A stretch of 64,000 bases of DNA, from positions 4,528 through 68,527 of the forward strand of contig CAZBUK010000003.1 in NCBI GenBank assembly GCA_964495085.1, in the 5' to 3' direction. This document shows positions 39,193 through 63,420 of this stretch, piece after piece (within the stretch, counting starts at the first letter, position 1; the number at the start of each line of letters is the position of its first letter). The DNA comes from an uncultured Ignavibacteriales bacterium (GTDB taxonomy: Bacteria > Bacteroidota > Ignavibacteria > T3Sed10-11). The notes under the pieces are model-generated. The model saw only the letters and a list, made by a program, of their open reading frames with translations. It was not told the DNA's origin and did no database searches. The position numbers and the translations under genes were made by a program.

Positions 39193-39228
39193 CAGCATGT
39201 ATCAAGTCCCAATAAAGAAATTTACTCT

Positions 39229-43402: not shown

Positions 43403-43417
43403 TACAAAGGTGCTCGT

Positions 43418-45985
43418 ATGGATTCTATTGTAATTAAACTGACAGGCATAATATTCCTGGGAACGTGTTTTTATGCATTCGGATTATTACCCGTTGCTGC
43501 GCAGAACCTCAAGCTGAATGACCTTGATTACTTCGAAGCACGGGGAATAAATATCCTCGTATTCAGCAATCCACCGGGAGGCATGTTCAACGATGCGAAG
43601 ACAAGCGGGGTGGAAGTAATTCATCACGGTGTCAGAACCGTGACCAACGGCGACGTCCGGTTACGCCCTACACCCGGACAATGGGATGAGTTCGGTCACT
43701 TCATTGAGCGCGCTGTACATAGGGACGGGAACAGCATAGAGGCAAAGCTCGAATATCCCGATTACAATTTTACCTATACCGTAAAAGTTACGGCAAGGAA
43801 CGGAGGAGTGCTTCTGAACGTGATTCTCGATTCTCCTCTCCCGCAGGCTCTGGAGGGTCGCGCCGGATTTAATCTCGAGTTTCTTCCGGCGGCATACTTT
43901 GAAAGCATGTATTATATGGACGGTTCGGGGAACCTCTTCCCGCGTCACCCCGCCGGCTTGATGAACGCCCTTGAAACCGTCAAAACGGAACCTGAACCAC
44001 TTGCGCGCGGGAAAACGTTTATCGCTGCTCCCGGTGATCCCGCCAGGCAAATTACCGTCAGTTCCAAGATGAACGACCTGTCCCTGTTCGACGGAAGGAA
44101 CCAGGCACAGAACGGATGGTATGTTCTGCGCAGTATGATCCCCGGGGGCGTATCGGGCGCCGTTGTCGAATGGTTCCTTACTGCGGAGACAATTCCCGGT
44201 TGGATTCGTCCTCCGATGATCGCGTTTTCACAGGTCGGATACCATCCCAACCAACAAAAGAGGATCGTTATCGAGCATGATAAAAACGATAATCGGCGTC
44301 CCGAAGCCAGGTTGGTTCATATTACCCCGGAAGGAAAGACCGTCGAGAAGTATAAAAGTAACGTAAAGGAATGGGGGCGCTATCTGCGATACGATTATGC
44401 AATCTTCGATTTTTCCGAGGTGAAAGATACCGGAATCTATCTCGTCGAGTACGGTGGAGAAAAAACAAAGCCGTTCCGGATCGACCGGAATGTGTATGAT
44501 AATGCGTGGCACCTTACCCTCGATGTGTTTTTTCCCGTACAGATGGATCATATGCTCGTCAGGGAAGCGTACCGTGTCTGGCATGGGGCATCTCATCTCG
44601 ACGATGCGCTCCAGGCGCCGGTAGACTATGTACACTTCGACCTCTATGCTCAAGGTCCGACTACCGATACTCAGTTTGAACCGGGCGAACATATACCGGG
44701 ATTGAATATCGGCGGCTGGTACGATGCAGGAGACTACGATATACGCACCCAATCACAGTATGCAACCGTGCTGAACCTTGTCCGTGCGTGGGAAAATTTC
44801 AGTATAGAGAGAGACAACACGACGGTAAGTCAGCATGAGCGGTATGTCGAAATCCATGCTCCCGACGGTCAACCCGATATACTCCAGCAGATCGAACACG
44901 GAACGCTCGCGTTGATCGCTCAACACCGGGCCGTCGGCCACGCGATTCCGGGTATCGTCGCCGCGCATCTGTATCAGTATACCCATCTCGGAGACGGATC
45001 GACGAAAACCGATAATCGAATTTATAATCCGGATCTGGATACAGTTAATGTAAAATTTCAATCCGGAAGGATGTTTCGACCGGTGACCACGGCTCCCCGT
45101 CCCGGTACCCGGTCATTGAAAACGGACGGATTGACGAGCGGTCTGTTCGACGATCGCTGGGCATTTACCAGCAGATCAACGTCGTTAAATTACGGTTCTG
45201 CAGCGGCGTTGGCAGCGGCATCCCGCGCATTAAAGGGATTCAACGACGAGTTGGCGGAAGAATGCCTTACAACGGCCATTCGGGTATGGGATGAGGAGCA
45301 GAATGGGGAGCCGTTTCTGTTTCGCTCGGGAAATACAACCGGAGGTATTTTGGAGATCGAAAAGCTGAATGCCGCCGTCGAACTGTTGATAACGCTTGAG
45401 GACCGGGTATATGCCGATACAATTCGGGAATTGGTTTCAGCGGTTGAGCAGAGGTTCGGTTTCGCAGCTATCCCGATTGTACGTGCGCTTCCTTACATGG
45501 ATGACGAATTCAGAGAAAAAGTAGAGGAAATGGCCCGGGATTACAGCAATCAACTGGAACGTTTCCGTGAGCTAAATCCTTTCGGTGTACCTATTACGAC
45601 CGGAGGGTGGGCAGGCGGGGGAGCGGTGGTCCAATCCGCACTTACGAATTACCACCTGTATAAAGCCTTTCCGGAATTGATCGATCCGGAATATGTATAT
45701 AGAGGTTTGAGCTACATATACGGCACTCATCCGGGCTCAAATATTTCTTTCGTATCGGGCGTCGGCGCCGAATCGCAGCTTGTCGCTTATGGTATGAATC
45801 GTGCGGACTTTTCCTTCATCCCCGGCGGCATAGTACCAGGTGTCCTCGTATTACCTCCCGATTTCCCGGAAAACAAAGAAAACTGGCCCTTCTTCTGGGG
45901 TCAGAATGAATATGTGATCACGCTCGGTTCCAGTTATTTATTACTGGTTCATGCGGTTATCGATTTACTTCACAATGATAGATAA
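43418..45985 (+). CDS. Glycoside hydrolase family 9-like protein with an N-terminal Ig-like/CelD_N-type region, secreted
   Basis: GH9 signature GGWYDAGDYDIRTQSQYATV. A second GH9-like block is SAAALAAASRALKGF, and C-terminal blocks are SYIYGTHPGSNISFVSGVGAE and NEYVITLGSSYLLLV. It has an N-terminal signal/anchor MDSIVIKLTGIIFLGTCFYAFGLLPVAAQ. Confidence 0.6.
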   Translation: MDSIVIKLTGIIFLGTCFYAFGLLPVAAQNLKLNDLDYFEARGINILVFSNPPGGMFNDAKTSGVEVIHHGVRTVTNGDVRLRPTPGQWDEFGHFIERAVHRDGNSIEAKLEYPDYNFTYTVKVTARNGGVLLNVILDSPLPQALEGRAGFNLEFLPAAYFESMYYMDGSGNLFPRHPAGLMNALETVKTEPEPLARGKTFIAAPGDPARQITVSSKMNDLSLFDGRNQAQNGWYVLRSMIPGGVSGAVVEWFLTAETIPGWIRPPMIAFSQVGYHPNQQKRIVIEHDKNDNRRPEARLVHITPEGKTVEKYKSNVKEWGRYLRYDYAIFDFSEVKDTGIYLVEYGGEKTKPFRIDRNVYDNAWHLTLDVFFPVQMDHMLVREAYRVWHGASHLDDALQAPVDYVHFDLYAQGPTTDTQFEPGEHIPGLNIGGWYDAGDYDIRTQSQYATVLNLVRAWENFSIERDNTTVSQHERYVEIHAPDGQPDILQQIEHGTLALIAQHRAVGHAIPGIVAAHLYQYTHLGDGSTKTDNRIYNPDLDTVNVKFQSGRMFRPVTTAPRPGTRSLKTDGLTSGLFDDRWAFTSRSTSLNYGSAAALAAASRALKGFNDELAEECLTTAIRVWDEEQNGEPFLFRSGNTTGGILEIEKLNAAVELLITLEDRVYADTIRELVSAVEQRFGFAAIPIVRALPYMDDEFREKVEEMARDYSNQLERFRELNPFGVPITTGGWAGGGAVVQSALTNYHLYKAFPELIDPEYVYRGLSYIYGTHPGSNISFVSGVGAESQLVAYGMNRADFSFIPGGIVPGVLVLPPDFPENKENWPFFWGQNEYVITLGSSYLLLVHAVIDLLHNDR

Positions 45986-46196: not shown

Positions 46197-47261
46197 ATGA
46201 AAAAGGTGACCATTGATGATATAGCCCGCGAAGCAGGCGTATCAAAGGGCACTGTGTCTGCCGTTATTAATCAGAAAAACACCGTAAATTCCGAAACCCG
46301 TGAAATTGTTCTCGATACGATGAAGCAGTTGAATTACAGACCGAAGGGAAGCGCCCGAAATCTACGGAGGGTTAAAAAAGGATATGCAAGTATCGGACTG
46401 CTCGTCCGGGAACTTGACAATCCCTTTTATACAACGCTCGCATTGGGAGTTATGGAGTACGCCATCAGCAAAGGCTATCTGGTATTCATCGCCAGTTCCG
46501 AAGGCGATCATAACTCCGAGGATAAGATCACTGACAGTTTTGCGGTAAGAGATATCAAAGGTGCAATCATTGCACCGGTTCTCGAAGGTACGGCGGAAAT
46601 TGAACATCTCTTCGAATTGAAAATGATCAATTTCCCATTCGTCCTCCTCGAAAGCGTCAAAGGCATACAAGCGAATGTAGTGAGCATTAATAATATAAAG
46701 GCGATGAAGGAAGCGATCAAATATCTCATGGATAACGGACATTCCAGGATCGTTCATTTCGCCGGTCCAAAGCATGCCTTTCACACTTATGAGCGAATCG
46801 ACGGATTCAGAAGAGCTTACAGCGAGAGCCGTTTCGCCTACAGCAACGATATGATCGTTCCGACCGGCGCCCTCCTCGAAGACGGGCATCGAACATGTCA
46901 CGATTACTTCAGGAATCGAAGCAGGGAAGATTATCCGACTGCCATTGTCTGTTATAACGATCTCGTTGCCCTCGGCGTCATGACGGCGTTGGCGGAACTC
47001 GATATCCAGGTTCCCGACGAGATCTCCGTCATCGGCACGGACGATATACCGTTCTCGAAGAATATACCGGTTAAACTAACTACCATACAGGCGCCCATTC
47101 GAGAGCTCGGACGACGCGCCGCGGAGATACTGATCAGAAATATTGAATCCTCCGAGTCTCTACCGATCGAGAACATCGTACTGAACACAAATTTAGTGAT
47201 ACGTGAATCAACCAGAGCGTTAAATCCGGCCCGTATGGGGATGATGGTCGAAGGCGCTTGA
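46197..47261 (+). CDS. LacI-family transcriptional regulator (copy 3). It is a paralog of the LacI gene at 22846..23880.
   Basis: MKKVTIDDIAREAGVSKGTVSAVINQKNTVNSETREIVLDTMKQLNYRPKGSARNLRR. The sugar-binding core is nearly collinear with copy 2. A strong SD CAGGAGG precedes the ATG. It lies upstream of xylB-xylA. Confidence 0.9.
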   Translation: MKKVTIDDIAREAGVSKGTVSAVINQKNTVNSETREIVLDTMKQLNYRPKGSARNLRRVKKGYASIGLLVRELDNPFYTTLALGVMEYAISKGYLVFIASSEGDHNSEDKITDSFAVRDIKGAIIAPVLEGTAEIEHLFELKMINFPFVLLESVKGIQANVVSINNIKAMKEAIKYLMDNGHSRIVHFAGPKHAFHTYERIDGFRRAYSESRFAYSNDMIVPTGALLEDGHRTCHDYFRNRSREDYPTAIVCYNDLVALGVMTALAELDIQVPDEISVIGTDDIPFSKNIPVKLTTIQAPIRELGRRAAEILIRNIESSESLPIENIVLNTNLVIRESTRALNPARMGMMVEGA

Positions 47262-47556
47262 ACTGCGGCCCAATCGACTCACTGAAGTTCTTCTAAAATA
47301 TATCCAGGGCGGGAGTCAATTTCCTGCTACCACTTCGCCGGTACCACGGAAAGAACCGCTCAACGCAAAGCACGCTCTACCTTTACCGGCATCCTACGTC
47401 GACGTCTTGTAACTCCCGGCTCTTCGTGGGCTCGCTCCATCAGCGAATATAGCTTGCATGACCCGGATACATTCCTTATCGGATCCCGCAAGTACTCAAC
47501 AAAATATCAATCGGAGAACCTTTCATCCTATTCCCGCAGGCATCGTTCCCCGAAGA

Positions 47557-49083
47557 ATGACCAGACAAATGCTCTCACTCGGCCTTGACATAGGAAGTTC
47601 ATCCATAAAAGCTGCACTGATAGATATCGATTCCGGCGCTCTTGTCGCCCAGGATTCATATCCGAAAGAAGAAATGCTCATTTCGGCTCCGCGTCCCGGA
47701 TGGGCAGAACAGGATCCCCAGGTCTGGTGGGAATGTGTCGGGATCCTCGTGCACCGTCTCAGGCAATTGCCGGGTGTTGCCGCAGAAAAGATCGCCTGCA
47801 TCGGTATCTCCTACCAGATGCACGGTTTGGTGCTGGTCGACGATCTGCAACGAGTGCTCAGACCTTCGATTATATGGTGCGACAGCAGGGCGGTTCAAAA
47901 CGGAATCAGAGCGCTCGATGTGCTCGGAGAGGAATTCTGCCAATCCCATCTCCTCAATTTCCCCGGAAATTTCACCGCGGCAAAATTCGGATGGGTAAAA
48001 GAGAACGAGCCGGAGATAGCAAGCCGGGTATCGAAGATGATGCTTCCCGGCGATTACATTGCGATGCGTCTGACCGGTGAGGTTACAACGACAATATCGG
48101 GATTATCAGAAGGAATCTTATGGGATTTTACGAAAGATAAAGTGTCCCCTTCGGTCTTGGAGCACTTCGGACTCACTGAGAACATTCTTCCGAAGATCGT
48201 TCCAACCTTCTCAGTTCAGGGAACATTGACGAAGAGCGCAGCCGCGGAACTCGGCCTCGATCCGGCGACGGTCGTCTCCTACAGGGCAGGTGACCAGCCG
48301 AATAATGCACTCTCGCTTAATGTGCTGGAACCGGGAGAAGTTGCGGCAACGGGAGGAACATCCGGTGTGGTTTACGGCGTCACCGATAACCGGCTCCCCG
48401 ATCCGAGATCCCGGGTCAACATTTTCGCGCACGTGAACCATACCGAAAAGCAGCAACGACTGGGTATTCTCCTCTGCATAAACGGAACGGGTATCCTGAA
48501 CGCGTGGCTCAAACGGAATATCGCAGGCGGTGCGGGGTACGATGCGATGAACATTGAGGCAGGTGCGGTTCCTGTCGGATCGGAGGGCTTGACCGTCCTT
48601 CCGTTCGGGAACGGAGCCGAGAGAGTGCTTGAAAATGCAAATATCGGAGCTCACGTGCTCGGACTTGATCTGAACAGGCATTCGAGGGCTCATCTCCTGA
48701 GAGCCTCTCAGGAAGGAATCGCATTCTCGTTCAGGTACGGTATTGATATCATGCAGGAACTCGGACTCCAGGTGTCGGTTATCAGAGCCGGGAGGGAGAA
48801 CCTTTTCCTGAGTCCGTTGTTCCGTGAAATTCTTTCAACAGTTACCGGCTCCGAGATAGAATTGTTCGAAACGAATGGAGCTCAGGGTGCGGCCCGGGGT
48901 GCCGCGGTCGGCGCCGGTTATATCAGATCCCTGGAAGATCTCTCCGGCACCTATTCCGTATCGGAAAGGATCACCCCGGTTTCTTCGATGGCGGAACCCG
49001 CACATCAGGCTTACGAGTTGTGGCTGGAGCGCCTTTCGGGGATTATGGTGGATTCTTCAAAACTATCAAGTGTGCATGTTTAA
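47557..49083 (+). CDS. xylB: Xylulokinase (FGGY family)
   Basis: FGGY N-terminal motif [23 protein letters not shown]. Motifs [15 protein letters not shown] and C-terminal [11 protein letters not shown] are typical of D-xylulokinases. Its stop lies 11 nt before xylA copy 2. The track ORF is 47458..49083; I start it at the ATG at 47557. Confidence 0.8.
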
Positions 49084-49094
49084 CGAGGGCTGCA

Positions 49095-50423
49095 ATGAAA
49101 CAGACAGTTAAAGAGACAGAATATTTTCCCGGGATCGAACGCATAACGTTCGAGGGGAGCGAGTCGGATAATCCGTTCGCATTTAAATGGTACGACGAAA
49201 ATGCCGTCGTGGCAGGCCGGACAATGAAAGAATATTTCCGGTTTGCGGTTGCCTACTGGCATTCGTTTCGCGGAACCGGTCAGGATCCGTTCGGCATGGG
49301 AACCCGATGTATGCCCTGGAATAAATCCGGGGATCCTCTGAGCCGCGCGAAATCGACGATGGATGCGGCATTCGAGTTTATTACCAAGCTCGGAGCGCCG
49401 TTCTACTGCTTCCACGATTTCGATATCATAGACGAAGGGAGCAGTATCGAGGAATCGGATCATCGGATCAAAACGCTCATCGATTATGCGAAGGAGAAGC
49501 AGCAGGAAACGGGAGTCCGGCTCCTGTGGGGAACCGCCAATCTATTTTCGCACCCGCGCTATATGAACGGAGCCGCGACGAATCCCGATTTCAACGTTCT
49601 CTCGTATGCGGCCGTTCAGGTCAAACGCGCGATAGATTTCACCTACGAGCTCGGCGGAGAAAATTATGTGTTCTGGGGGGGGCGTGAAGGATACACCTCG
49701 CTTCTGAACACGAATATGAAGCGGGAAAAGGATCACCTTGCCGGATTCCTCTCGCTGGCGCGCGATTACGCCCGGAAGATCGGTTTCGACGGCACCCTGC
49801 TGATCGAACCGAAACCGATGGAACCGTCAAAGCATCAGTATGATTACGATGTCGAGACGGTTATCGGCTTCCTGCGCGCGTACGGACTCGATACAGATTT
49901 CAAGCTCAACATCGAGGTCAACCACGCGACGCTTGCCGGACATACCTTCCAGCACGAGATCCAGTGCGCCGTAGATGCCGGCATGCTGGGAAGCATCGAT
50001 GCCAACCGCGGCGACTATCAGAACGGATGGGATACGGATCAGTTTAGCGTCAATCTGTTTGAGCTTGTCCAGGCAATGCTCATCGTCCTCGAAGCAGGCG
50101 GTTTCGGAAAGGGCGGTGTGAACTTCGACGCTAAGGTGCGCCGGACATCGACCGACCCGGAGGATCTGTTCATCGGCCACATAACGGGTATGGATTCGTT
50201 CGCACGTGCACTCCTTGTAGCCGATAGAATACTGAGAGAATCGCCGTATAAAACCCTCCGTCGCGATCGATACAGCAGTTACGACAGCGGTGAGGGGAAG
50301 CGGTTCGAGAATGGGGAACTCAGTCTTGAAGACCTGAGTCGGATGGGTAACCTCAACGGAGAGCCGAAACAGATCAGCGGAAAACAGGAATTACTCGAAC
50401 GTATTATCACTATGTTTATGTGA
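49095..50423 (+). CDS. xylA: Xylose isomerase (class II), copy 2
   Basis: It carries the same XylA signature blocks as copy 1 ([68 protein letters not shown]). Identity to copy 1 is about 75% aa. The track ORF is 49020..50423. I start it at the ATG at 49095, which is preceded by GAGGG. Confidence 0.93.
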
Positions 50424-50724: not shown

Positions 50725-51213
50725 ATATTCTAGTCAAGTCTCTCTCAGATTTCTAACAGAGAAGCTGCCAATCGTCTGAACCGGCGTAAATCCCAATCGC
50801 TCAGGACTAAATATCGAGATGAGAAAGCATGATCCCTGACTCATTATCGGCAGCGCTCCTTAAATTAATATTCCCGGCGACGCCTAGTTCGGTACGCTGT
50901 CTTCATTGCCGCAACCGGATCGCCGGATATCCCGGCCGGCTGCACAAGTAATAAAACCAGAGGAGATAATCTGTGTTACGGATACATAACATCTCTGTAC
51001 GGTTATCTTCCTTTCAGACAGAACATTTCTTTTCACTGAGAAATTTTTCCTCAATCGAAATAAACCATAATCGTTAGCTCGAATTTATGAACTATCGGAA
51101 GCGCGACCTCTGGCGCATTTGATCCGCTCCACAGGTTCCTCTGTTACTAAAAATGTAAAATAAATAATCGATATCGAAGTACAAAGCGTTACAATAATTT
51201 GCAGGAGGGAAAG

Positions 51214-54200
51214 ATGTTACCTCAGATCAATACCCGCGGGAATCGGTATAGTGTATTTCTCAGTCTCTTGCTTATTTTCGTATTTCAAGCCGGCATATTC
51301 GCCCAATCCGGTACCATTCGTGGGCAGGTGATCGATAACGAGACGAGAGCCCCTTTAGCCGGCGCTAATATCATCATACAGGGTACGAGTCTGGGTGCGG
51401 CAACGGATCTCAATGGGCACTATGTAGTTCGCAACGTTCCGGCTGGGTCGGTTACGATTGTTATCTCCTATATCGGATATGACAGAATCACGATGGAGAT
51501 TACCGTTACCGCCAATAGAATCATAGAGCAGGACTTTGCTCTTCGCTCGACCTTAATCGAAGGAGAAACGATCGTCATTACGGCTCAGGGTGAAGGGCAA
51601 GTATCGGCCATTCAACAACAGATCGCCTCGAATAAGATAGTGAATATCGTATCCGAGGCAAGGATCCAGGAACTTCCGGATTTCAACGCCGCTCAGGCAA
51701 TAGCCCGCTTGCCCGGAATCTCGACATTGAAAAGCTCGGGCGAGGACAACAAGGTCGTCATCAGAGGATTGGCTCCTCAATTCAACGCAATCGAAGTCGG
51801 AGGAGTTAAGCTCGGCGCTACCGGTAGTACGCAAATCGGAGCAACCTCTCAGGGAGGTACCGCCGGTAACGTCAGCAGCGACAGGAGCGTCGATCTCTCG
51901 CTGATTACGCCCTATATGATAAAATCCATATCCCTCTATAAAGCAATCACCCCCGATATGAATGCAAATGTCATCGGCGGGTTGGTGAATATAGAATTGA
52001 GGGAAGCTCCGTCCGGATTTCGCGGCGACGTTCTCTGGCAATCCGGCTACACGCAAAAGAGCGGCCAATATGGGAACTATAGAACCGTCGTATCTGCAAG
52101 CAACAGATTCTTTAACGACCGTCTCGGCGCATACGTCCTGCTGAATGCAGAGTCCTATGATCGTAACGCGGATAATATGAGCGCCGGTTATCGTATCGTT
52201 CAGCATTTCCGCGGAGAGGGCAGATTTTCCGACGTAGCAGTTGATAATGTACAGCTGAGTCGGTTCATTGAAAACAGGCAGCGCTACGGGGCTAACCTGA
52301 TCCTCGACTACCCGCTTCCCAACGGCAGTATTAAGTTGATCAATATGTTTGCACGTCTGCGTTCTGATTTCAACGATCACAGGATGGTAATGAACTACAC
52401 TTCAAATAACATTACCTTCAATTACAGAGAAGGGGTCAATCACATCGACATGGTATTGAATTCGTTGAAATTCGAATATGATCTCGGGAGGGTGCTCGTA
52501 GATGTGACGGCGGCAAATAATTCTTCCAGAAATGACCTACCCGAAACTCCCCGCCTCAATTATTTACTGGCTGGAGGGATAGTTAAAACCGGAGAGACAC
52601 CGCGAAACACCGTTCCCGAAGAATTGACACAATTTATCGCCTTCGAAGAACGTGGGGGAGCAGATCAGACGGTTCTGACACAAATAGACCTCTTCAGTTC
52701 CAAATACAGAGAAACCAATCGTTCGGTGAACGCAAATTTCACTCTGCCCTTTGCCCTGAGTACATCTTTCTCCGGATATTTCAAAGCTGGCGGTGTTTTT
52801 AGGTACGAAAACCGTACGATGGACCAGGAAACCCCTTATGTCGGTATGGGACTCACGAGCGATATTCAGCGGCGGATGATGGATGCCCTGATGGCTGAGT
52901 TCAATGTGCAATTACCATCTGGACAAGGGCTCTTTCCCGCCTCGACGTTTTCTTCCCGTAATTCGGACCTCCTTAAACCCTTTTTAAATGATAAGTTCGG
53001 ACGCTTTTTGTGGGCCGGTGACCCCACCATACCGGTAGGATTCGCACGGTACCTGTCGGCGCATCGGGAGGAATTTGCTGGTGTGGGCTCCGGACCGGAG
53101 GGTGCGGGTGGATGGTATGACGGGCCATTCCAACAGCTCGCCAACGATTTTGAATATACAGAAAGGTATTATGCCGGTTACTTGATGACCGAAATAAATT
53201 TCCTCAATTTTATGATAGTGGGCGGCGTTAGATATGAGTTAAATAAATCCGAATTTTTTGCATACAATATGGTTGATGCCCGTAATCCGCCTACTCAGGT
53301 ATGGACGGAGACTACCGTATATCCGGAGAACGAATTCTGGTTGCCGATGGTACAGGTCCGGTATAAGCCGTTTGGCTGGGGAGATGTCCGGTATGCGTAC
53401 ACTCAAACACTCGCCCGCCCGGACTTTCACATGCTCTCGCCGCGTGTTTCCTTTTCATACGATCACCGCAACCTCTGGACCGGCAATCCGGATCTTAAAC
53501 CGGCGGAGGCATTAAATCACGATCTTATAGTGACCTTGTACAGCAACCGGTTAGGATTATTCTCTGTCGGAGGATTCCACAAAACGGTATCGAACTTCTC
53601 CTATTATACGCAGTATGCGGTGTATGAGGCGAGCCGGATGCGGCCCGGACTCGAAAGCGTTGAATCGATCACCGAAAGAACCGGCAACACACCGCAGGTA
53701 GGCGCTATTTTAAATACTTACGTCAATTCGGCTTACGACGCAACGGTGAAAGGAATCGAGGTAGATTTTCAAACCCGACTCTGGTATTTGCCCGGCCTGT
53801 TGAAAGGGATTGTGCTCGGGGCGAATTTTACCACTATTCAATCCAAAGCCACATATCCGTGGAGAGACACCTTTACCATACTGAATCCCAACCCTCCGCC
53901 CAGAAACATTCCCGACGTAGTCGACAGCACTCGTACGGGCCGGTTGATCAACCAGCCGGATAATATCGTAAATACATATATCGGTTACGACTACATGGGA
54001 TTTTCCACCCGTTTCTCATATACCTTCATCGAAAACGCCATGAGCGGCATCGGAAGGTTCGACGAACAGGACGGATTTACGAGGGATTACCACAGGCTTG
54101 ATATCTCCGCTCGGCAGAAATTACCCTTTATGGGAATGGAAGTATACTTAGACCTTAATAACCTTAATGCGGCAACCAATGTTTCGGCACAGAAAACGAT

Positions 54201-54267
54201 CGGAGGATTTACGAATCAGCAGTTATACGGTCTCACTGCGAACCTCGGATTCCGTTTGAGGTTATAA
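51214..54267 (+). CDS. TonB-dependent outer-membrane receptor/transporter (copy 2, paralog of the receptor at 34075..37086)
   Basis: Signal peptide plus a CarboxypepD_reg-like segment GTIRGQVIDNETRAPLAGANIIIQGTSLGAATDLNGHYVV. Plug motifs are DFNAAQAIARLPGIS and GLAPQFNAIEVGG. Its domain order is collinear with copy 1. The track ORF starts with TTG at 51199. I start it at the ATG at 51214, which is preceded by GCAGGAGGG. Confidence 0.85.
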   Translation: MLPQINTRGNRYSVFLSLLLIFVFQAGIFAQSGTIRGQVIDNETRAPLAGANIIIQGTSLGAATDLNGHYVVRNVPAGSVTIVISYIGYDRITMEITVTANRIIEQDFALRSTLIEGETIVITAQGEGQVSAIQQQIASNKIVNIVSEARIQELPDFNAAQAIARLPGISTLKSSGEDNKVVIRGLAPQFNAIEVGGVKLGATGSTQIGATSQGGTAGNVSSDRSVDLSLITPYMIKSISLYKAITPDMNANVIGGLVNIELREAPSGFRGDVLWQSGYTQKSGQYGNYRTVVSASNRFFNDRLGAYVLLNAESYDRNADNMSAGYRIVQHFRGEGRFSDVAVDNVQLSRFIENRQRYGANLILDYPLPNGSIKLINMFARLRSDFNDHRMVMNYTSNNITFNYREGVNHIDMVLNSLKFEYDLGRVLVDVTAANNSSRNDLPETPRLNYLLAGGIVKTGETPRNTVPEELTQFIAFEERGGADQTVLTQIDLFSSKYRETNRSVNANFTLPFALSTSFSGYFKAGGVFRYENRTMDQETPYVGMGLTSDIQRRMMDALMAEFNVQLPSGQGLFPASTFSSRNSDLLKPFLNDKFGRFLWAGDPTIPVGFARYLSAHREEFAGVGSGPEGAGGWYDGPFQQLANDFEYTERYYAGYLMTEINFLNFMIVGGVRYELNKSEFFAYNMVDARNPPTQVWTETTVYPENEFWLPMVQVRYKPFGWGDVRYAYTQTLARPDFHMLSPRVSFSYDHRNLWTGNPDLKPAEALNHDLIVTLYSNRLGLFSVGGFHKTVSNFSYYTQYAVYEASRMRPGLESVESITERTGNTPQVGAILNTYVNSAYDATVKGIEVDFQTRLWYLPGLLKGIVLGANFTTIQSKATYPWRDTFTILNPNPPPRNIPDVVDSTRTGRLINQPDNIVNTYIGYDYMGFSTRFSYTFIENAMSGIGRFDEQDGFTRDYHRLDISARQKLPFMGMEVYLDLNNLNAATNVSAQKTIGGFTNQQLYGLTANLGFRLRL

Positions 54268-54317: not shown

Positions 54318-56078
54318 ATGAAACGAATTTCTACAATCATGTGCGTCATGATGATAGCGACAATCTCGTTATTCGCACAAAAAACCGTTGTACCTGTCCC
54401 GAGCGATCTCGGTACCGAAGGGAATCTAAACGCTGCGATTCAGGCTGCAATAGATGCCGGTGAACTGTCCAATACCATCTTCGAATTAGAGCCGTACGGC
54501 TATTATATTCTTTCCAGTTCGATCGTTGTTCCGGCGGGTGAACATCTGGAAATCGTCGGCCCGGTACCGGGGACTACGCAAGAAACCTCTCCTCCACAGA
54601 TATTGTGGACAGCCACGGGCGGAGTTGCGACCGATATGTTAATCGAATCCTACGGGGAAATTACACTCAAGAATATATGGATCTTGTACGCAAACGCGGC
54701 AGGCGATCAGGTCGGGACGACTATTCAGATACAACCGAATCCGAACGGTCCCGAAACGGCCACCTTCGAGAACGTGATCTTCGATTGGTCTCCCACCCCC
54801 TCGAACGCCGGCGGAGCCGTCTCCAATACCTCCGAAGGTCTGATCGCTATATTCAGAAATTGCTATTTCAAGAATGCCGTCGATTTTCACCTCCGGTATT
54901 ACGGCAGGGCGCTCTCGTTCCCATACCAGGCCAGGGGATGGCATAACGAATATGTGCTATTTGAGAATACTACCTTTGCAAATATCGGGTATGTTTATAT
55001 GCAGGAGGAAAACAATTGGGGTTCCAATGTCCATTTCAATCACTGTACGTTCCTGAACACAGTCATGTTTACATTGCAAACCGGATGGTGGTACAAAATG
55101 TCCATTACAAACTCCATTTTTGTTAATCCGTTCATGTTTGGTTATATCCCCGCACAGCTCGGTGCAGACGGCGAAATGAACGGGAGTTTAATCCGGATCG
55201 ACAGCGCTGCAACATTCTTGTTTAACGTACCTTTCTCTGAACAGGATCGCCGCATACTGTTTGCACACAACAGCCATTATTACGAAGACTGGTTAGTGGA
55301 TTGGATAGCGAATAACCCGTACGCAAATGCCTTACGTGATGACTTTCGTGCGGATGAGATACCCGTTCTGCATCCCCCATTAAGCCCCGGGACTCTTGAA
55401 TTCTTAGATGGATTAGACGACGAGGGCGATAAGCTCTTTCCATATATGAACAAGGTGAATTTTTATGAGAACGTCAATCCGGGTTTTATCGAACCTCCCA
55501 CGAATCTCGATGACCTCAAAGACTTTTTAAGGAGAAAGTGGGATGACAACACTCAGAATATGTGGGCATATTTTCCCGAGGACGGCGTGAACCAAATGTG
55601 GCCCATGAGAGAAGACTTATCCTACACAAACGAAACGTTGCAATCTGCAAGTATAGGCGGATTCCCGCTGGGAGACCTGTATCGGTGGTGGCCCGAACAA
55701 TATGCACAGTGGGAAGCTCAAAAGGAAGATGAGTGGGATCGCATTCTGAACTGGCTCGAGACGGGCAGTGATGAACCGGTGAGCGTCCGTGAAATTACGG
55801 GCGGTCAGATTCCGCAGGAATATGTCCTCCGCCAGAATTATCCGAATCCGTTCAACCCGGCCACGGAGATCGGGTATTCCATCCCTGTAAGCGGCAACGT
55901 CTCTTTGAAAGTATTTAATTACCTTGGACAGGAAATAAGATCGCTGTACGATGGTTATCAGGAAGCCGGTAATTATATCGCTACGTTCGATGCGACAGGC
56001 CTGGCAAGCGGTATGTATATATACCAGCTGCAGTCCGAGAGTAAGTCTCTGACGAAAAAATTGATACTTTTGAAGTAA
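54318..56078 (+). CDS. Secreted right-handed beta-helix protein with a T9SS C-terminal domain (paralog of the protein at 37225..39093). It is the partner of TonB-dependent receptor #2.
   Basis: Signal peptide MKRISTIMCVMMIATISLFAQ. Beta-helix-like coils (HFNHCTFLNTVMFTL...SITNSIFVNP). A block is shared with the 37225 protein (GGFPLGDLYRWWPEQYAQWEAQKE versus GGYPLGDLNWFPEQKAAWETEKE). The CTD is NYPNPFNPATEIGYSIPVSGNVSLKVFNYLGQEIRSL...GMYIYQLQSESKSLTKKLILLK. It lies 50 bp after the receptor and is preceded by an SD AAGGAGG. Confidence 0.75.
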   Translation: MKRISTIMCVMMIATISLFAQKTVVPVPSDLGTEGNLNAAIQAAIDAGELSNTIFELEPYGYYILSSSIVVPAGEHLEIVGPVPGTTQETSPPQILWTATGGVATDMLIESYGEITLKNIWILYANAAGDQVGTTIQIQPNPNGPETATFENVIFDWSPTPSNAGGAVSNTSEGLIAIFRNCYFKNAVDFHLRYYGRALSFPYQARGWHNEYVLFENTTFANIGYVYMQEENNWGSNVHFNHCTFLNTVMFTLQTGWWYKMSITNSIFVNPFMFGYIPAQLGADGEMNGSLIRIDSAATFLFNVPFSEQDRRILFAHNSHYYEDWLVDWIANNPYANALRDDFRADEIPVLHPPLSPGTLEFLDGLDDEGDKLFPYMNKVNFYENVNPGFIEPPTNLDDLKDFLRRKWDDNTQNMWAYFPEDGVNQMWPMREDLSYTNETLQSASIGGFPLGDLYRWWPEQYAQWEAQKEDEWDRILNWLETGSDEPVSVREITGGQIPQEYVLRQNYPNPFNPATEIGYSIPVSGNVSLKVFNYLGQEIRSLYDGYQEAGNYIATFDATGLASGMYIYQLQSESKSLTKKLILLK

Positions 56079-56296: not shown

Positions 56297-59284
56297 ATGG
56301 AAAGAATTATACATTCGATTCCTATTTTCAAGAACCTGCTATTTACATTCCTGGCGCTTTCATTCGTAATAGGTATTGGTGTTTCAGTGCAGGCCCAGGA
56401 ACCTGAGCTGCCGATTCTTATAGATGAATGGGGCTTTATCCCCGGCAGAGTCAATGGATGGCAGATATCGGTCGGAGAACCGGGTAATGTGGATCTCACT
56501 ACCGACACCGGATTTACGGGTGAATGGGCAGGGGTACGCGGGGAATTTGGTCCGGTTACCGTAGAGGAGGGTCAAGCTCTTATACTCTCAGGGAAACTGG
56601 ATTTTGTCGGTCAGGGACCGAGCGCCTGGAGCGCTCTCCGCTACGGAGTATTCCGCCAGGATAGCGCAGGGGTGGTACAGTACGCCGGTACAGACTCATC
56701 TCTCTGGTCGGGCAGTGAAGGTTTTTCATATGGCTATATGTTAACAAACCACAGCGGGACGCAGGATCGCGTCTCCTGGTCGAACGGGAACGGAAACATC
56801 GGTGTCCATCATGGAGGGGTATGGCTCAGCTCGTTTAATAACGATCCTCGATCGCTTGGTGTAATAGATCAGCGACTCTTCCGCGCCGAAGCTCCGGAGG
56901 GAATGTATGATTTCGCTGTTTCAATTCATACGCAGGATGACGGCAACAATCAGGTCCGGTTCTACCTGATTCATGAAGACGGAGAATACTGGTTCGGCGG
57001 CCTTGTGGTAGATACAACGGGAGTGCCGACGAGTGAGTATAATAGTTTCTGTTTCGCGTTTAACAACAGGAACGAAAACCTGACTGAAGTGAAGTTAATT
57101 GATGTGTCGGTCAATCTCGACGACCCCATTACGCTCCCCGAACCGCCGCTCGAGATGCCGCCGCATGACATCGGCAGAATATTCAATGAAAACCGTCTAT
57201 TTGAATTATCTTCTCCCGGTCCGGCAAGCGGCCCGTTCTGGTATTTTGCAACCGGGAATACGGTCGGTTACGATGTCGTGTATGATGACGCGCAGACCGG
57301 TGACCGTTCGGTAAGGATCGAATTCGACGATGCTCACGAGGGCAATAGCTGGGATATCGAAGCGGTAAACGAACCGATTTATCCTGGGGAAAATGACATT
57401 ATTCGTGCCAGCGTATGGCTCAAAGCCGACACCGATGAGCGTGTGGCAAATCTGTACATCGGTTTGCCGGATGATTGTGATTTTGAGCGCGTATCGTCAC
57501 ATCAAGTAACGCTGACTGAAGACTGGGCTATGTATCAGATACCCGACTATGTGGTCCAGACGAACGATGCGGGCTGTACGGTGAGGTTTGGAATAGAACT
57601 AAACTATGAAGAGAACATCGGAGGCGTAATCTCCCTCGACAATGCGATAGTGAGGAAAGTAGGGGAACACGATCCGACTAAAGTAGCCACCTGGGGTTTT
57701 ATCCCCGGCAGAGTCAATGGATGGCAGATATCGGTCGGAGAACCGGGCAATGTGGATCTCACTACCGACACCGGATTTACGGGTGAATGGGCAGGAGTAC
57801 GCGGGGAATTTGGTCCGGTTACCGTAGAGGAGGGTCAAGCTCTTATACTCTCAGGGAAACTGGATTTTGTCGGTCAGGGACCGAGCGCCTGGAGCGCTCT
57901 CCGCTACGGAGTATTCCGCCAGGATAGCGCAGGGGTGGTACAGTACGCCGGTACAGACTCATCTCTCTGGTCGGGCAGTGAAGGTTTTTCATATGGCTAT
58001 ATGTTAACAAACCACAGCGGGACGCAGGATCGCGTCTCCTGGTCGAACGGGAACGGAAACATCGGTGTCCATCATGGAGGGGTATGGCTCAGCTCGTTTA
58101 ATAACGATCCTCGATCGCTTGGTGTAATAGATCAGCGACTCTTCCGCGCCGAAGCTCCGGAGGGAATGTATGATTTCGCTGTTTCAATTCATACGCAGGA
58201 TGACGGCAACAATCAGGTCCGGTTCTACCTGATTCATGAAGACGGAGAATACTGGTTCGGCGGCCTTGTGGTAGATACAACGGGAGTGCCGACGAGTGAG
58301 TATAATAGTTTCTGTTTCGCGTTTAACAACAGGAACGAAAACCTGACTGAAGTGAAGTTAATTGATATATCAGTCAATCTCGACGATCCGATTACGCTCC
58401 CGAACCCGCCGCTCGAGACCCCGACGCACGATATCGGGAGAATTTTCAATGAAAACCGCAACTTTGAGCTCTCCAGCCCCGGGGTAACGACCGGCGAGCC
58501 GTTCTGGTCGTTCAACATAACACAAGGCGGAGCCAATGCAGAGTTCGCGATCGAACATGGTGATGCTCAGAACGGCGACCGCGCTCTCAGGATCGACTTC
58601 GGTACCTGGAACGGCGCAAGCGACGTATGGCATGTAGAGGCAGTGAACGAACCGTTCTATCCGGAAGTCGGCGACACAATCCGTGCTACGGTATGGCTTA
58701 AAGCGGATACCGACACACGTGTCGCTCGTTTATACCTTGGCTTGCCGGGAGGCAGCTTCCAACGAGTCCCAGATTGGGGTATGGAAGAAACTGTTACTCT
58801 GACAACAGAGTGGGCTATGTACTCCTTCCCCGATTACATGGTTATTCAACGCGATGTCAACCATGCTCCCGATGGTGCAATGCGATTTGGTATCGAATTG
58901 AATCTGGAGGCGAATGACGGCGGTATGATCTGGATTGACAACGCAATCGTGAGAGTCGTGGGCAAAATGCCTGTCTCGGTAGAAGTCGACCCGACTATAC
59001 CGCTCACCTTCGCACTCGAGCAGAACTATCCCAATCCGTTCAACCCGACGACGCAGATCCGGTTTTCACTCCCCGATCATGCGGACGTCATACTCGAGGT
59101 GTTCGATATCCTCGGCAGACGGGTAGCGACCCTCATCAACAACGAGAACTACGCACCCGGACGCTATACGGTAACATGGGACGCGACGAACAAATCGGGC
59201 TTCTCGATCAGCAGCGGTATGTATATCTATCGCATCCAGGCGGGAAGTCATGTAGACATAAAACGGATGATGTTCCTTAAGTAA
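56297..59284 (+). CDS. Secreted modular protein (995 aa). It has a signal peptide, two tandem ~421-aa units (each a conserved ~230-aa module plus a CBM4/9-like carbohydrate-binding module) and a T9SS C-terminal domain.
   Basis: Signal MERIIHSIPIFKNLLFTFLALSFVIGIGVSVQAQ. Unit boundaries are at WGFIPGRVNGWQISVGEPGNVDL (aa 45 and aa 466). The CBM-like ends are ...SLDNAIVRKVG and ...WIDNAIVRVVG. The CTD is NYPNPFNPTTQIRFSLPDHADVILEVFDILGRRVATL...GMYIYRIQAGSHVDIKRMMFLK. An SD GGAGGTAA precedes the ATG. Confidence 0.75.
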   Translation: MERIIHSIPIFKNLLFTFLALSFVIGIGVSVQAQEPELPILIDEWGFIPGRVNGWQISVGEPGNVDLTTDTGFTGEWAGVRGEFGPVTVEEGQALILSGKLDFVGQGPSAWSALRYGVFRQDSAGVVQYAGTDSSLWSGSEGFSYGYMLTNHSGTQDRVSWSNGNGNIGVHHGGVWLSSFNNDPRSLGVIDQRLFRAEAPEGMYDFAVSIHTQDDGNNQVRFYLIHEDGEYWFGGLVVDTTGVPTSEYNSFCFAFNNRNENLTEVKLIDVSVNLDDPITLPEPPLEMPPHDIGRIFNENRLFELSSPGPASGPFWYFATGNTVGYDVVYDDAQTGDRSVRIEFDDAHEGNSWDIEAVNEPIYPGENDIIRASVWLKADTDERVANLYIGLPDDCDFERVSSHQVTLTEDWAMYQIPDYVVQTNDAGCTVRFGIELNYEENIGGVISLDNAIVRKVGEHDPTKVATWGFIPGRVNGWQISVGEPGNVDLTTDTGFTGEWAGVRGEFGPVTVEEGQALILSGKLDFVGQGPSAWSALRYGVFRQDSAGVVQYAGTDSSLWSGSEGFSYGYMLTNHSGTQDRVSWSNGNGNIGVHHGGVWLSSFNNDPRSLGVIDQRLFRAEAPEGMYDFAVSIHTQDDGNNQVRFYLIHEDGEYWFGGLVVDTTGVPTSEYNSFCFAFNNRNENLTEVKLIDISVNLDDPITLPNPPLETPTHDIGRIFNENRNFELSSPGVTTGEPFWSFNITQGGANAEFAIEHGDAQNGDRALRIDFGTWNGASDVWHVEAVNEPFYPEVGDTIRATVWLKADTDTRVARLYLGLPGGSFQRVPDWGMEETVTLTTEWAMYSFPDYMVIQRDVNHAPDGAMRFGIELNLEANDGGMIWIDNAIVRVVGKMPVSVEVDPTIPLTFALEQNYPNPFNPTTQIRFSLPDHADVILEVFDILGRRVATLINNENYAPGRYTVTWDATNKSGFSISSGMYIYRIQAGSHVDIKRMMFLK
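56429..58954 (+). repeat. Intragenic tandem duplication with a 1263-bp period, two copies. The first ~670 bp of each copy are about 99% identical at the nucleotide level, and the remainder is strongly diverged.
   Basis: Copy 1 starts at tggggctttatccccggcagagtcaatggatgg (56429) and copy 2 at tggggttttatccccggcagagtcaatggatgg (57692). I saw only about 4 substitutions over ~670 bp. The antisense track ORFs 56835..57017 and 58098..58280 are identical (60 aa each), and the track ORFs 56384..56575 and 57599..57838 share a 58-aa N-terminus. Past ~57100 / ~58363 the copies fall to roughly 50% aa identity. Confidence 0.9.
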
Positions 59285-59409: not shown

Positions 59410-61092
59410 ATGATAAAATATCTTACTCTATCGATTCTGTTCTCCTCATATCTCTATGCTCAGTCGGATGCAATTCAGACCGACGTTCCGGCACTGAAGG
59501 ACGTATATGCAAAGGATTTTACGATCGGCTGTCTTCTTTCCTATCCCCATATCGGTTTTCAGGACGACCCGCCGGTGCCCGGGCAAGGCGCCGTTGTAGC
59601 CCCGAACGGCGGTTACCTCATACAGTTTCACATGAACAGCATGTCTCCGGGCAATAATATGAAGGCCCAGAATACGGTCAATATAAACGCCAGCGCCGCG
59701 GCATATAATGCGGCAACAACGGATGAGGAGAGGGATTCCATCAACGTGCATCCCGTCGTTCGTTTCAACGGCAACATGATCGCGCAGCTTAACTGGGCGC
59801 AGCGCCAGGGATTCGTGTTTCGCGGTCATACGCTTGTGTGGCATAATCAAACTCCCGGTACCGCCTTCTTCCGAACGGGTTATTCAAGCACAGGTGAACG
59901 GCTAAGCCCCGAGCTTATGACCGAACGAATGAGAAATTTTATCGGAGAGGTCATCCGTCTGCTGCACGAAGACTGGCCCGGGATGGTGACGGCAATGGAC
60001 GTCGTCAACGAAGCGGTGGCGGATAACGGGACTTTTCGTACCTCGAACAACGAATGGTACGATACTTTCGGCGATAATAGCTACGTGCTGAAGGCATTTG
60101 AATTTTCACGGGAAGCTACCGAGCTCTACGGCGAAACTCAGATGATGCTCTATTATAACGACTATAACACCCATAGTTCAGCCAAAGCCGATGGGATCGT
60201 ACAACTCCTGACGCCGGTATGGGAAGCCGGATACCTCGACGGTATCGGCATGCAGCACCACGACCAGAGAACGAGTCCTTCCGCATCCCAATTCATCAGC
60301 TCATACGACAAATTTTATCCGATCTGCAGCGAAATGGCGATAACCGAATTGGACGTCAATCCCCAATCCGCCATTACCGATTTCATACTGCAACAGCAGG
60401 CGAGTCAGTATGCCATGCTGTTCAAGCTGTTTGTCGAGCGCAGCGCCGGATCCGGTCGCGGCAAGATTGTCAACGTATCGAAAGACGGTCTGAACGATCA
60501 GTATGCATTCGTGGCAAACGCGTCGCTCTGGGATGCCGACAATCAGGTCAAGCCCGCATTCTGGGCGGCGGTGAATGTCGGTATTCATTACCATGCGTTG
60601 GATTCGCTTATCACACATGCGGAAACGCTCGTCGAGACCGACTATACGCCCGAGACATGGTTGATGTTCACGGATTCGCTCGAAGCGGCTGAAGATGCTA
60701 TGGCGCAAAATTATTCCTATATGGATTCCGCCGCAGATGCGCTTCAAAACGCGCGTGAAGCGTTGGAACTTGCCTATCAGGGTCTGATCTTAACGAACTA
60801 TGCCGGAGAGGCTGATCGCGGAGTCCCGGAATCGTATCATCTTGAACAGAACTTCCCCAATCCGTTTAACCCGGCGACCCGGATCGGCTACTCGATTCCG
60901 CAAGCCGGCAACGTTTCGCTCAAAGTATACAATCTGCTCGGACAGGAGGTCGCGACGGTGTTCGAAGGATTTCAATCCGCGGGAAATTACTCGTTTACAT
61001 TCGACGGCGCCGGACTCGCCGGCGGGGTGTACCTGTACCGGCTGCAGGTTAATAATTTCGTAGAGACAAAAAGGTTGGTTCTGGTCAAATAA
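59410..61092 (+). CDS. Endo-1,4-beta-xylanase, glycoside hydrolase family 10, with a T9SS C-terminal domain
   Basis: GH10 hallmarks are GHTLVWHNQTP, an acid/base block WPGMVTAMDVVNEAV and a nucleophile block MAITELDVN. Signal peptide MIKYLTLSILFSSYLYAQS. The CTD is NFPNPFNPATRIGYSIPQAGNVSLKVYNLLGQEVATVFEGFQSAGNYSFTFDGAGLAGGVYLYRLQVNNFVETKRLVLVK. Confidence 0.9.
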   Translation: MIKYLTLSILFSSYLYAQSDAIQTDVPALKDVYAKDFTIGCLLSYPHIGFQDDPPVPGQGAVVAPNGGYLIQFHMNSMSPGNNMKAQNTVNINASAAAYNAATTDEERDSINVHPVVRFNGNMIAQLNWAQRQGFVFRGHTLVWHNQTPGTAFFRTGYSSTGERLSPELMTERMRNFIGEVIRLLHEDWPGMVTAMDVVNEAVADNGTFRTSNNEWYDTFGDNSYVLKAFEFSREATELYGETQMMLYYNDYNTHSSAKADGIVQLLTPVWEAGYLDGIGMQHHDQRTSPSASQFISSYDKFYPICSEMAITELDVNPQSAITDFILQQQASQYAMLFKLFVERSAGSGRGKIVNVSKDGLNDQYAFVANASLWDADNQVKPAFWAAVNVGIHYHALDSLITHAETLVETDYTPETWLMFTDSLEAAEDAMAQNYSYMDSAADALQNAREALELAYQGLILTNYAGEADRGVPESYHLEQNFPNPFNPATRIGYSIPQAGNVSLKVYNLLGQEVATVFEGFQSAGNYSFTFDGAGLAGGVYLYRLQVNNFVETKRLVLVK

Positions 61093-61875: not shown

Positions 61876-63420
61876 ATGCATATCAGGGGCGTTCTCATGC
61901 TAATATTGACTCTCTTTGCCGCACAGACTTCGCCGGCACAATCATCCCACGTCATGACCCTTAACGTCGACCAGGCGGAGATAACAATCAACAGACATAT
62001 CTACGGCCATTTCGCCGAGCATCTGGGAAGGGGAATTTACGATGGCCTCTGGCGGAAGGATACATCGGGCGAATTCCGTATTCGGCAGGATATAGTCGAA
62101 GCGCTTCGGGCGATTCAAATTCCCAACCTCCGCTGGCCGGGCGGGTGTTTTGCAGACTATTATTTTTGGAAGGACGGTGTGGGTCCCCGCGACGAACGTC
62201 CCTCCATCGTGAATGTACTCTGGGGCGGCGTTACCGAAGACAACAGCGTCGGTACTCATGAATTCATGGAATTGATCGAACTTCTTGATACGGAACCGAT
62301 CGTCGTCGGTAATGTCGGCAGTGGCACGGTCCAGGAGATGGCGCAGTGGTGGGAGTACGTAAACCACCCGGGTCCGAGTCCCATGGCAAACTGGCGCAAG
62401 GAGAACGGACGTGAAAAACCATGGAACGTCCGATTCTGGGGCGTGGGCAACGAGAGCTGGGGATGCGGCGGTCACATGCGCCCCGAATTCTATGCCGACG
62501 CCTACCGGCAATTCCAGACCTACCTGCACGGATACCCGGGTATTCGTCCCTTTCGCATTGCGGCGGGTGCTGCCGGCGGCAATTACGAGTGGACGGAGGT
62601 ATTGATGCGTGAAGCAGGAAATTTTATGGAGGGACTCGATCTGCACCATTATACGATCCTGGGTGACTGGGTTACTAAAAAAGGACATGCGACCGAGTAC
62701 GGCGAGGCAGAATGGTTCGAGTTGATGAAACGCGGCTGGCAAACGGAAGAGCTGGTCGAGGGTCACTCTGCGATCATGGATAAGTACGATCCGGAAAAGC
62801 GCGTCTGGCTCATCGTCGGTGAATGGGGAACATGGCACGAGCCGCTCGAGGGATCGCAGCCGGGATTTCTGCATCAGCAGCAGACGATACGCGATGCCTT
62901 GGTAGCGTCGCAGTCGCTGAATATATTCAACCAGAATGCCGACCGCGTAAAAATGGCGAACATTGCACAGACGGTCAACGTGCTTCAGGCGATGATCCTG
63001 ACCGGGGAAGAGCAGATGATTCTGACCCCCACATATCACGTGTTCGAATTTTATACGGTTCACCATGACGCCCTGCTTGTCCCAATGGAACTTGATGCGG
63101 GCACGTATGAATTCAACGGCGCATCAATCCGTCCCCTCACCGCGACCGCATCGCGGCCTTCAACAGATGCCGATGTGATACATATTACGATCTCAAACCT
63201 GGATCCCACCGCGGGTCGCAGAGTAGAGACGGCACTCAACGGATTTAACGCATCGGGCGTGACGGGACGCATACTGACCGCCGGCGATATGACCGCACAT
63301 AACACATTCGTGAATCCGAATGCCGTCGCTCCTGCGCCGTTCAACGGAGCCCGCATTACCGGCGGCAGGCTTATCATCGACCTCCCGCCGATGTCGCTTG
63401 TTGTGCTTGAGGTGCGGTAA
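61876..63420 (+). CDS. Alpha-L-arabinofuranosidase, glycoside hydrolase family 51 (copy 2), secreted
   Basis: Signal MHIRGVLMLILTLFAAQTSPAQS. GH51 blocks HIYGHFAEHLGRGIYDGLW, IPNLRWPGGCFADYYFWKDGVGP and FWGVGNESWGCGGHM. It is collinear with the copy at 26601..28172. An SD AAAAGGAGG precedes the ATG. Confidence 0.9.
   Translation: MHIRGVLMLILTLFAAQTSPAQSSHVMTLNVDQAEITINRHIYGHFAEHLGRGIYDGLWRKDTSGEFRIRQDIVEALRAIQIPNLRWPGGCFADYYFWKDGVGPRDERPSIVNVLWGGVTEDNSVGTHEFMELIELLDTEPIVVGNVGSGTVQEMAQWWEYVNHPGPSPMANWRKENGREKPWNVRFWGVGNESWGCGGHMRPEFYADAYRQFQTYLHGYPGIRPFRIAAGAAGGNYEWTEVLMREAGNFMEGLDLHHYTILGDWVTKKGHATEYGEAEWFELMKRGWQTEELVEGHSAIMDKYDPEKRVWLIVGEWGTWHEPLEGSQPGFLHQQQTIRDALVASQSLNIFNQNADRVKMANIAQTVNVLQAMILTGEEQMILTPTYHVFEFYTVHHDALLVPMELDAGTYEFNGASIRPLTATASRPSTDADVIHITISNLDPTAGRRVETALNGFNASGVTGRILTAGDMTAHNTFVNPNAVAPAPFNGARITGGRLIIDLPPMSLVVLEVR

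Follow-up and report, generated by a model that had tools for sequence, protein, structure and literature searches.

Gene conversion as the probable cause of near-identical A modules in an A-B-A-B cargo protein of the type IX secretion system from an uncultured Ignavibacteriales bacterium

How can two tandem units of a single gene be almost identical over one half and strongly diverged over the other? This question is raised by the open reading frame (ORF) at 56297..59284 on the forward strand of a 64,000-nt stretch of DNA from an uncultured Ignavibacteriales bacterium (contig CAZBUK010000003.1, positions 4,528 to 68,527), hereafter the window. The ORF encodes a 995-aa cargo protein of the type IX secretion system (T9SS), identical to the protein referred to here as P0001, in which a signal peptide is followed by the modules A1, B1, A2 and B2 and by a T9SS type A C-terminal sorting domain (CTD). 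The comparison of this gene with its orthologs makes it likely that intragenic gene conversion has homogenised the A modules, a form of concerted evolution, and that the B modules evolve as independent, position-specific orthologs.

The near-identity was measured by comparing the window with itself, ungapped, at an offset of 1263 nt. The segments 56429..57103 and 57692..58366 (both on the forward strand) differed at 3 of 675 bp, namely at positions 56434, 56485 and 56533, all of which are synonymous third positions; the 225 encoded residues of A1 and A2 were all identical. The longest exact run in this comparison was 570 bp (56534-57103). Given that the rest of the unit is 59-70% identical, the probability of an exact run of this length is below 1e-88. 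An independent repeat search returned the same A pair, which blastn aligned at 97.7% identity over 767 nt. The 3' edge of the tract was graded, with 16 differences in the 93 nt of a transition zone (57104..57196, forward strand) that covers the end of A1, the linker and the start of B1, and beyond this zone the ungapped register fell to chance level. The zone probably combines the remnant of an older, longer tract with a conserved linker motif. No further copy of A or B was detected in the 64-kb window by blastn. Tandem Repeats Finder reported no array in the window, a result that is uninformative either way because its longest period was 500.

An initial annotation, made from the sequence alone, had described two units of exactly 1263 bp each, with about 4 differences over the first ~670 bp. 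The near-identity and the A-to-A register of 1263 nt were borne out, with the count corrected to three differences in 675 bp; the units are not both of that length, because the indels between B1 and B2 make unit 2 about 12 aa longer than unit 1. Its estimate of about 50% protein identity for the halves that resemble carbohydrate-binding modules (CBMs) agreed with the measured 53-54% between B1 and B2, an alignment with several indels and saturated synonymous sites. The identical antisense ORFs that it listed at 56835..57017 and 58098..58280 do exist, as a trivial consequence of the repeat. It had also considered that A and B might prove equally alike in nucleotide sequence. On a codon alignment they were not, as the two A copies shared 99% of their nucleotides, with a proportion of synonymous differences (pS) of 0.02, against 59% and a pS of 0.85 for B.

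The relative age of the two patterns was examined with three orthologs from independent assemblies (P0002, P0003 and P0004), which have the same A-B-A-B-CTD architecture and together with the window represent four A-B-A-B lineages. The flanking genes of the four lineages shared 74-86% protein identity. For both P0003 and P0004, two contigs that differ by 1 nt were recovered from different samples, which means that the architecture did not arise by chance in a single assembly. Across P0001-5 and P0013, the B modules formed two deep clades, B1 and B2, with one module of each per A-B-A-B protein. In a neighbour-joining (NJ) tree of B, all unit-1 copies were separated from all unit-2 copies with 100% bootstrap. 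This demonstrates that the A-B duplication is old.

The A modules grouped differently, by gene and not by position. In NJ trees, the within-gene A pairs of the window, P0003 and P0004 each received 100% bootstrap, also when third positions only were used, and the pair of P0002 received 0%. Codon-aligned values for the orthologs showed a graded series. In P0003, units 1 and 2 shared 96% of nucleotides (pS 0.09) in the C-terminal part of A, 81% (pS 0.37) in its N-terminal part and 59% (pS 0.71) in B. In P0004, the corresponding values were 88% (0.39), 71% (0.65) and 62% (0.64), and in P0002 they were 69% (0.69) for A and 54% (0.85) for B, with only 63% protein identity between its A1 and A2. For the C-terminal part of A, pS therefore rose from 0.00 in the window through 0.09 in P0003 and 0.39 in P0004 to 0.70 in P0002. 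Over the whole module, nucleotide identity within the gene was 99, 90 and 81% for the window, P0003 and P0004, against 61-81% between genes, and the pS of 0.02 in the window compares with 0.53-0.72 between orthologs. The alignment of orthologs, which the initial annotation had recommended, thus revealed homogenisation of A to a differing degree in three lineages and none in P0002, and it supports the earlier proposal of a recent gene conversion confined to the first module.

The direction of the transfer could be read from an insertion. A1 of P0002, P0003 and P0004 has in common a 14-aa insertion ([E/R]TLYEGTDSA.VV..), which is absent from every A2 and also from A1 of the window. In addition, the two A copies of the window formed a clade with A2 of P0002 (100% bootstrap). 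The missing insertion and this grouping show that an A2-type sequence overwrote A1 in the window lineage, and copy 2 of the tract (57692..58366) is the probable donor type.

B2 showed a different set of relationships. Its similarities (58415-58972, compared with L001, L003 and L004) conflicted with those of B1 and of the flanking genes: P0002 and P0003 shared 82% of nucleotides in B2, with the window at 68-72% to both, and in B1 the window and P0002 were closest, at 80%. From this incongruence, the 3' half of the gene may have undergone additional recombination.

The sequence of events that best fits these comparisons would be the following. The A-B duplication is older than the divergence of at least four related lineages. 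In the window lineage, A2-type sequence would then have been copied over A1 by a recent, non-reciprocal homologous recombination, presumably of RecA type, between direct A repeats lying 1263 bp apart on one chromosome or on sister chromosomes. The event would have erased the ancestral 14-aa insertion of A1 and left a virtually identical tract whose length lies between a minimum of 570 bp and about 675 bp. The three differences at the 5' end and the graded 3' edge suggest a nested arrangement, with the last tract covering at least 56534-57103 inside a somewhat older, longer one. The tract starts at the WGF motif, with the onset of A-A homology, and resolves in the conserved A-B linker (DPITLP.PPLE.P.HDIGRI.NENR.FELS.PG); at about 59% nucleotide identity, B1 and B2 are probably too diverged for branch migration or exchange. 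Similar events, older or partial, would have occurred independently and at different times in the lineages of P0003 and P0004, with none in that of P0002. It is this recurrence in three lineages that indicates that the A modules evolve in concert.

Several points weigh against this account. The identity of the copies rests on one assembly of this strain in the collections, and a de Bruijn assembler or a polisher would render copies that are about 98-99% alike identical, so that the absence of differences over 570 bp may be overstated. The comparison comprises four A-B-A-B lineages. The donor may have been other than A2, since both A copies could have been overwritten from a paralog located outside the window. 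Cycles of unequal crossing-over are also not formally separable from conversion.

The last two points describe the alternative that survives best, although we regard it as rather unlikely: A would have been homogenised by another recombination route, either by cycles of unequal crossing-over (three units, then a deletion) or by conversion from a paralog with the order X-A-B2-CTD. Related genomes do have such paralogs in loci of pectin type, including one in the sample of P0002, and their A-B2-CTD part is 84-88% identical in protein sequence to the A2-B2-CTD half. The conflicting relations of B2 are a further hint of exchange, and the contig L088 may carry a three-unit allele. Unequal crossing-over would, however, alter the number of B1 modules as well, by duplication or deletion, and all intact A-B-A-B genes had exactly one B1 and one B2. 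As regards an external donor, the 64-kb window contained no third A or B module, and the most economical route is a direct conversion between the repeats, which lie 1263 bp apart. Both routes would in any case be variants of the same process.

Two sets of related loci were observed alongside this comparison. At the end of contig L088 (2128-5887, the P0005 locus), three A-B units preceded the CTD; several frameshifts broke the first two A modules and the first B, and P0002-like sequence was seen in the middle A (resembling its A2) and in the first B (resembling its B1). The locus is either a three-unit allele in decay, generated by unequal recombination, or a chimera of co-occurring strains with many assembly errors. 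In P0007 and P0010 (L090:4001-7579 and L089:4001-7702), an N-terminal region of about 640 aa was followed by A-B2-CTD. Their loci were of pectin type, with genes for a member of glycoside hydrolase (GH) family 88, a Pel9A-like beta-helix protein and KduI, and P0007 came from the same sample as P0002. Modules appear to have been exchanged between xylan and pectin-type loci.

An artefact of assembly or polishing was considered very unlikely. Here a collapse, bubble popping or multi-mapped polishing would have made less alike copies identical, or the copy number would differ. In favour of an artefact, the exact 570-bp repeat exceeds the length of short reads and of usual k-mers, the strain has a single assembly, and L088 looks chimeric or error-rich over the same modules, with three units, many frameshifts and P0002-like segments. 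On the other hand, the ORF is intact and in frame in a window without N. A pasted or collapsed segment would give sharp edges, and we observed three phased synonymous differences at the 5' end and a gradual 3' decay. The same A-B1-A-B2 order was present in three orthologs from independent assemblies, and the partial homogenisation of P0003 and P0004 (96% and 88% nucleotide identity), each recovered twice from different samples, is not something that an assembler makes. Copies more than a few percent apart would also have been assembled separately, and the true identity of A1 and A2 would therefore still be very high, at least about 98%.

Selection on module A was examined through synonymous and non-synonymous rates. 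The synonymous divergence (dS) between A1 and A2 of the window was 0.02, whereas comparison with the nearest ortholog gave 0.98. Among orthologs, A had a dS of about 1-1.6 and a ratio of non-synonymous to synonymous rates (dN/dS) of 0.10-0.20, and B a dN/dS of 0.05-0.14, both about 0.1. As the synonymous sites of A vary freely between orthologs and the ratio is alike in A and B, selection does not explain the identity of the A copies. By these rates, module A is under ordinary purifying selection and the identity in the window is due to a recent event rather than to constraint. The unusual constraint on A that the initial annotation had assumed was not supported, since the identity extends to synonymous sites, dN/dS is about 0.1 in both modules and the copies of A-A-A-A proteins diverge normally. 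The synonymous sites refute the idea that exceptionally strong purifying selection, without recombination, keeps the A copies identical: the protein is indeed identical over 225 aa, but the synonymous sites match as well (dS 0.02), and orthologs reach a dS of about 1 at the same codons. In addition, A and B have equal dN/dS values, A1 and A2 of P0002 are only 63% identical, and the A copies of A-A-A-A proteins are 33-45% identical.

Gene conversion as the favoured explanation leaves a separate question, namely why A but never B was homogenised, independently in three of four lineages. That selection maintains this homogenisation, as opposed to its following neutrally from residual homology, is unlikely. 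If it did, the protein would need a pair of identical lectin-like modules, perhaps for A-A pairing or to bind bivalently to a regularly spaced decoration on xylan, together with two different CBM4 specificities, and module A would found a new CBM family restricted to T9SS cargo.

Module A occupies aa 44-272 (A1, 56426..57112, forward strand) and aa 465-693 (A2, 57689..58375, forward strand). It had no match in Pfam or NCBIfam, and a profile of A found none in the PDB at E-values up to 1, in line with the earlier remark that the module belongs to no recognised family. Structure prediction and a fold search, also recommended at that stage, gave a confident AlphaFold2 (AF2) model with a concanavalin A (ConA)-like lectin/glucanase fold, a jelly-roll beta-sandwich. 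Its structural matches were the thrombospondin C-terminal domain, galectins, L-type lectins, YesU, CBM66, GH16 and polysaccharide lyase family 7 (PL7). Thus A has the fold in common with the ConA-like lectin/glucanase superfamily, but without a sequence-family match and with at most 16% sequence identity to any of these structures. Module A is predicted to be an unannotated lectin-like module, probably carbohydrate-binding.

An exhaustive profile search among 1.84 billion proteins retrieved 137 cluster-50 representatives of the A family, most with 2-5 tandem A copies. Nearly all sampled members had a T9SS-type CTD, often together with CBM4_9, CBM9 or Mann_GBD modules, and no GH catalytic-domain match was found in 8 of 8 sampled members. 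Across 28 A modules, the invariant and near-invariant columns were mostly Gly, Trp, Tyr, Arg, Ser and Gln; no E or D was invariant, and only D198 was nearly so. The GH16-type ExDxxE motif was not conserved in these modules, nor was the HEDGE string of the window's A conserved in distant members. A GH16-like or PL7-like enzymatic activity of A was rejected for lack of a conserved catalytic motif. In the A-A-A-A proteins P0016 and P0017, A copies at the same position were 77-88% identical between orthologs, and those at different positions 33-45%, except for A2 and A3 at about 72%. The GC content of A (0.52) was unremarkable beside that of B1 (0.50), B2 (0.54) and the window (0.505), and a foreign origin of module A was rejected on this ground.

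Module B comprises aa 286-459 (B1, 57152..57673) and aa 707-892 (B2, 58415..58972), both on the forward strand and assigned to the B1 and B2 clades of CBM4. A profile built from 18 B modules matched CBM4-2 of Rhodothermus marinus Xyn10A in the PDB (1k42/1k45 and engineered variants) with an E-value of 3e-18 over 164 residues, and the single sequences matched it at 1e-6 (B1) and 6e-8 (B2). The AF2 model of B had a pLDDT of 77, and its top Foldseek matches were all CBM4-2 variants (E 1e-12, TM-score 0.75-0.86), followed by other CBM4 and CBM22 modules. Because of these profile and fold matches, module B is classed as a CBM4, which refines its earlier description as CBM4/9-like; Pfam CBM_4_9 gave no match at threshold on the B modules. 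In the HMMER alignment, both B1 and B2 had W.[IV]E at the positions of W69 and E72 of CBM4-2. F110 aligned with F in B2 (GSFQ), and in B1 the aromatic residue sits 3 residues off. We take W69 and F110 to be the binding-cleft aromatics of CBM4-2.

Module B thus resembles CBM4-2 (also variants 2y64 and 3jxs) in profile, fold and the W..E motif of the cleft, although the identity is only 23-25%. Like the pair B1/B2, two diverged CBM4s occur in one polypeptide in the GH10 xylanase Pm25, where they differ in specificity and act cooperatively (PMC7848910). By analogy with the Pm25 modules (PMC7848910), B1 and B2 may be kept different by selection. Unlike Xyn10A and Pm25, the present protein has no catalytic domain, and its CBM4s alternate with lectin-like modules.

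The ends of the protein indicate export. A putative Sec signal peptide (aa 1-33, ...GVSVQA|QE; 56297..56395, forward strand) was recognised by eye from the translation and is probable. The T9SS type A CTD (aa 911-992; 59027..59272, forward strand) matched TIGR04183 with 33.1 bits (cutoff 23), PF13860 with 28.8 (cutoff 27) and PF18962 with 26.3, below its cutoff of 27. The TIGR04183 match exceeds the curated cutoff, as expected from the initial description of a T9SS cargo protein. The same CTD was present on at least four other ORFs of the window, which would imply that the T9SS machinery is present in the genome. Distant homologs of the A-B-A-B protein were labelled Melioribacter and Balneolaceae, names that point no further than to the FCB group, and full-protein scans of genome and metagenome contigs returned no relatives, or CTD matches only.

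The genomic context of the gene was then considered for its function. On the forward strand, it is preceded by a TonB-dependent receptor-like outer-membrane protein (51199..54267; CarboxypepD_reg, Plug and beta-barrel), which is syntenic in the orthologous loci, and by a 586-aa T9SS cargo protein (54318..56078), which is syntenic in all of them. It is followed, on the same strand, by a GH10 xylanase with a T9SS CTD (59410..61092) and an alpha-L-arabinofuranosidase with an Alpha-L-AF_C domain (61876..63420). Further upstream start genes for a LacI regulator (46197), an FGGY sugar kinase that is probably a xylulokinase (47458) and a xylose-isomerase-like protein (49020). The order of receptor, 586-aa T9SS protein, A-B-A-B gene and hydrolases was kept in three orthologous metagenomic loci (L001; L002/L003; L004/L005), with GH10 and then GH30 and/or GH51 downstream. 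The 586-aa protein showed 74-79% protein identity across the four lineages and no significant Pfam domain besides the CTD, apart from a weak DUF5123 match. It stands alone between the transporter and the A-B-A-B gene and has no SusD/RagB match, and no SusD-like gene was found there in the window or in L001-L004.

From this conserved xylan-utilisation locus we infer that the A-B-A-B protein is most plausibly a secreted or surface-attached, multivalent xylan-capturing protein; surface glycan capture by the protein and carbohydrate binding by A are both part of this inferred role. It recalls the SusE/F-like surface glycan-binding proteins of Bacteroidota polysaccharide utilisation loci (PULs), which are also multi-module, non-catalytic, likely surface glycan binders encoded between a TonB-dependent transporter and glycoside hydrolases. 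It differs from them in that the T9SS CTD, not a lipoprotein anchor, probably serves anchoring and export, and its modules are unrelated to theirs in sequence. The locus also differs from SusC/SusD PULs in having no SusD-like gene beside the transporter.

A second locus with a similar logic was observed at 34075-45985, with a TonB-dependent receptor (34075), a 622-aa T9SS cargo protein (37225), a peptidyl-prolyl isomerase (PPIase)-domain protein (39229), a 786-aa protein without a Pfam match (41042) and a GH9 enzyme (43418); it probably serves cellulose or beta-glucan utilisation. Three LacI-family regulators and two xylose-isomerase-like TIM-barrel genes were distributed over 3649-6278, 22846-23880 and 46197-50423, and the window also contained an L-arabinose isomerase, an aldose epimerase, an SSF symporter and a GH31 enzyme. 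Taken as a whole, the window is densely packed with genes for pentose and hemicellulose utilisation. Among 185,579 species-representative genomes, no match of the L-arabinose isomerase (6319-7818) exceeded 69% identity, and the best ones came from many different phyla; in this set, the window lineage lacks a close representative. The segment 13256-22786 contained two very large ORFs (1751 and 1392 aa).

Concerted evolution by gene conversion is a known phenomenon in bacteria, as in tufA/tufB of Salmonella and the rRNA operons, and homogenisation of repeat domains is known from protein A, from the alpha-C/Rib surface proteins of Gram-positives and from the cohesins of scaffoldins. The present case agrees with these in that repeats within a genome are more alike than orthologs between genomes, synonymous sites included, and in that the tracts end with the homology. 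It differs in that the repeats are interspersed and only one of two module types is homogenised, in that homogenisation occurs sporadically, being complete, partial, old or absent depending on the sister lineage, and in that the gene encodes a T9SS glycan-binding protein of an uncultured lineage. Intragenic homogenisation itself is well described in spidroins (PMC3933166) and also elsewhere (PMC4534519). Our literature search found no paper on module A or on concerted evolution of CBM-type modules in bacteria. The only part of the protein without database precedent is module A, a small unannotated lectin-fold family.

The phenomenon is therefore of a known kind, and none of these findings overturns current understanding; the case is a tidy one, as the modules are interspersed, one type is homogenised, and direction and recurrence are readable from the orthologs. 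Module A is an unannotated lectin-like domain with a confidently predicted fold that is found almost only in tandem arrays of T9SS cargo beside known CBMs, and it is a reasonable candidate for a new CBM family. The perfect direct repeat of 570 bp predicts instability of the unit number in the population and difficulty for assemblers. Trees built from the modules of such proteins cannot be taken to represent the history of species or of duplications. The gene would thus provide a compact natural example of the evolution of modular glycan-binding proteins, in which copy correction acts repeatedly on one module type and the adjacent modules of the repeat unit diverge as separate orthologs.

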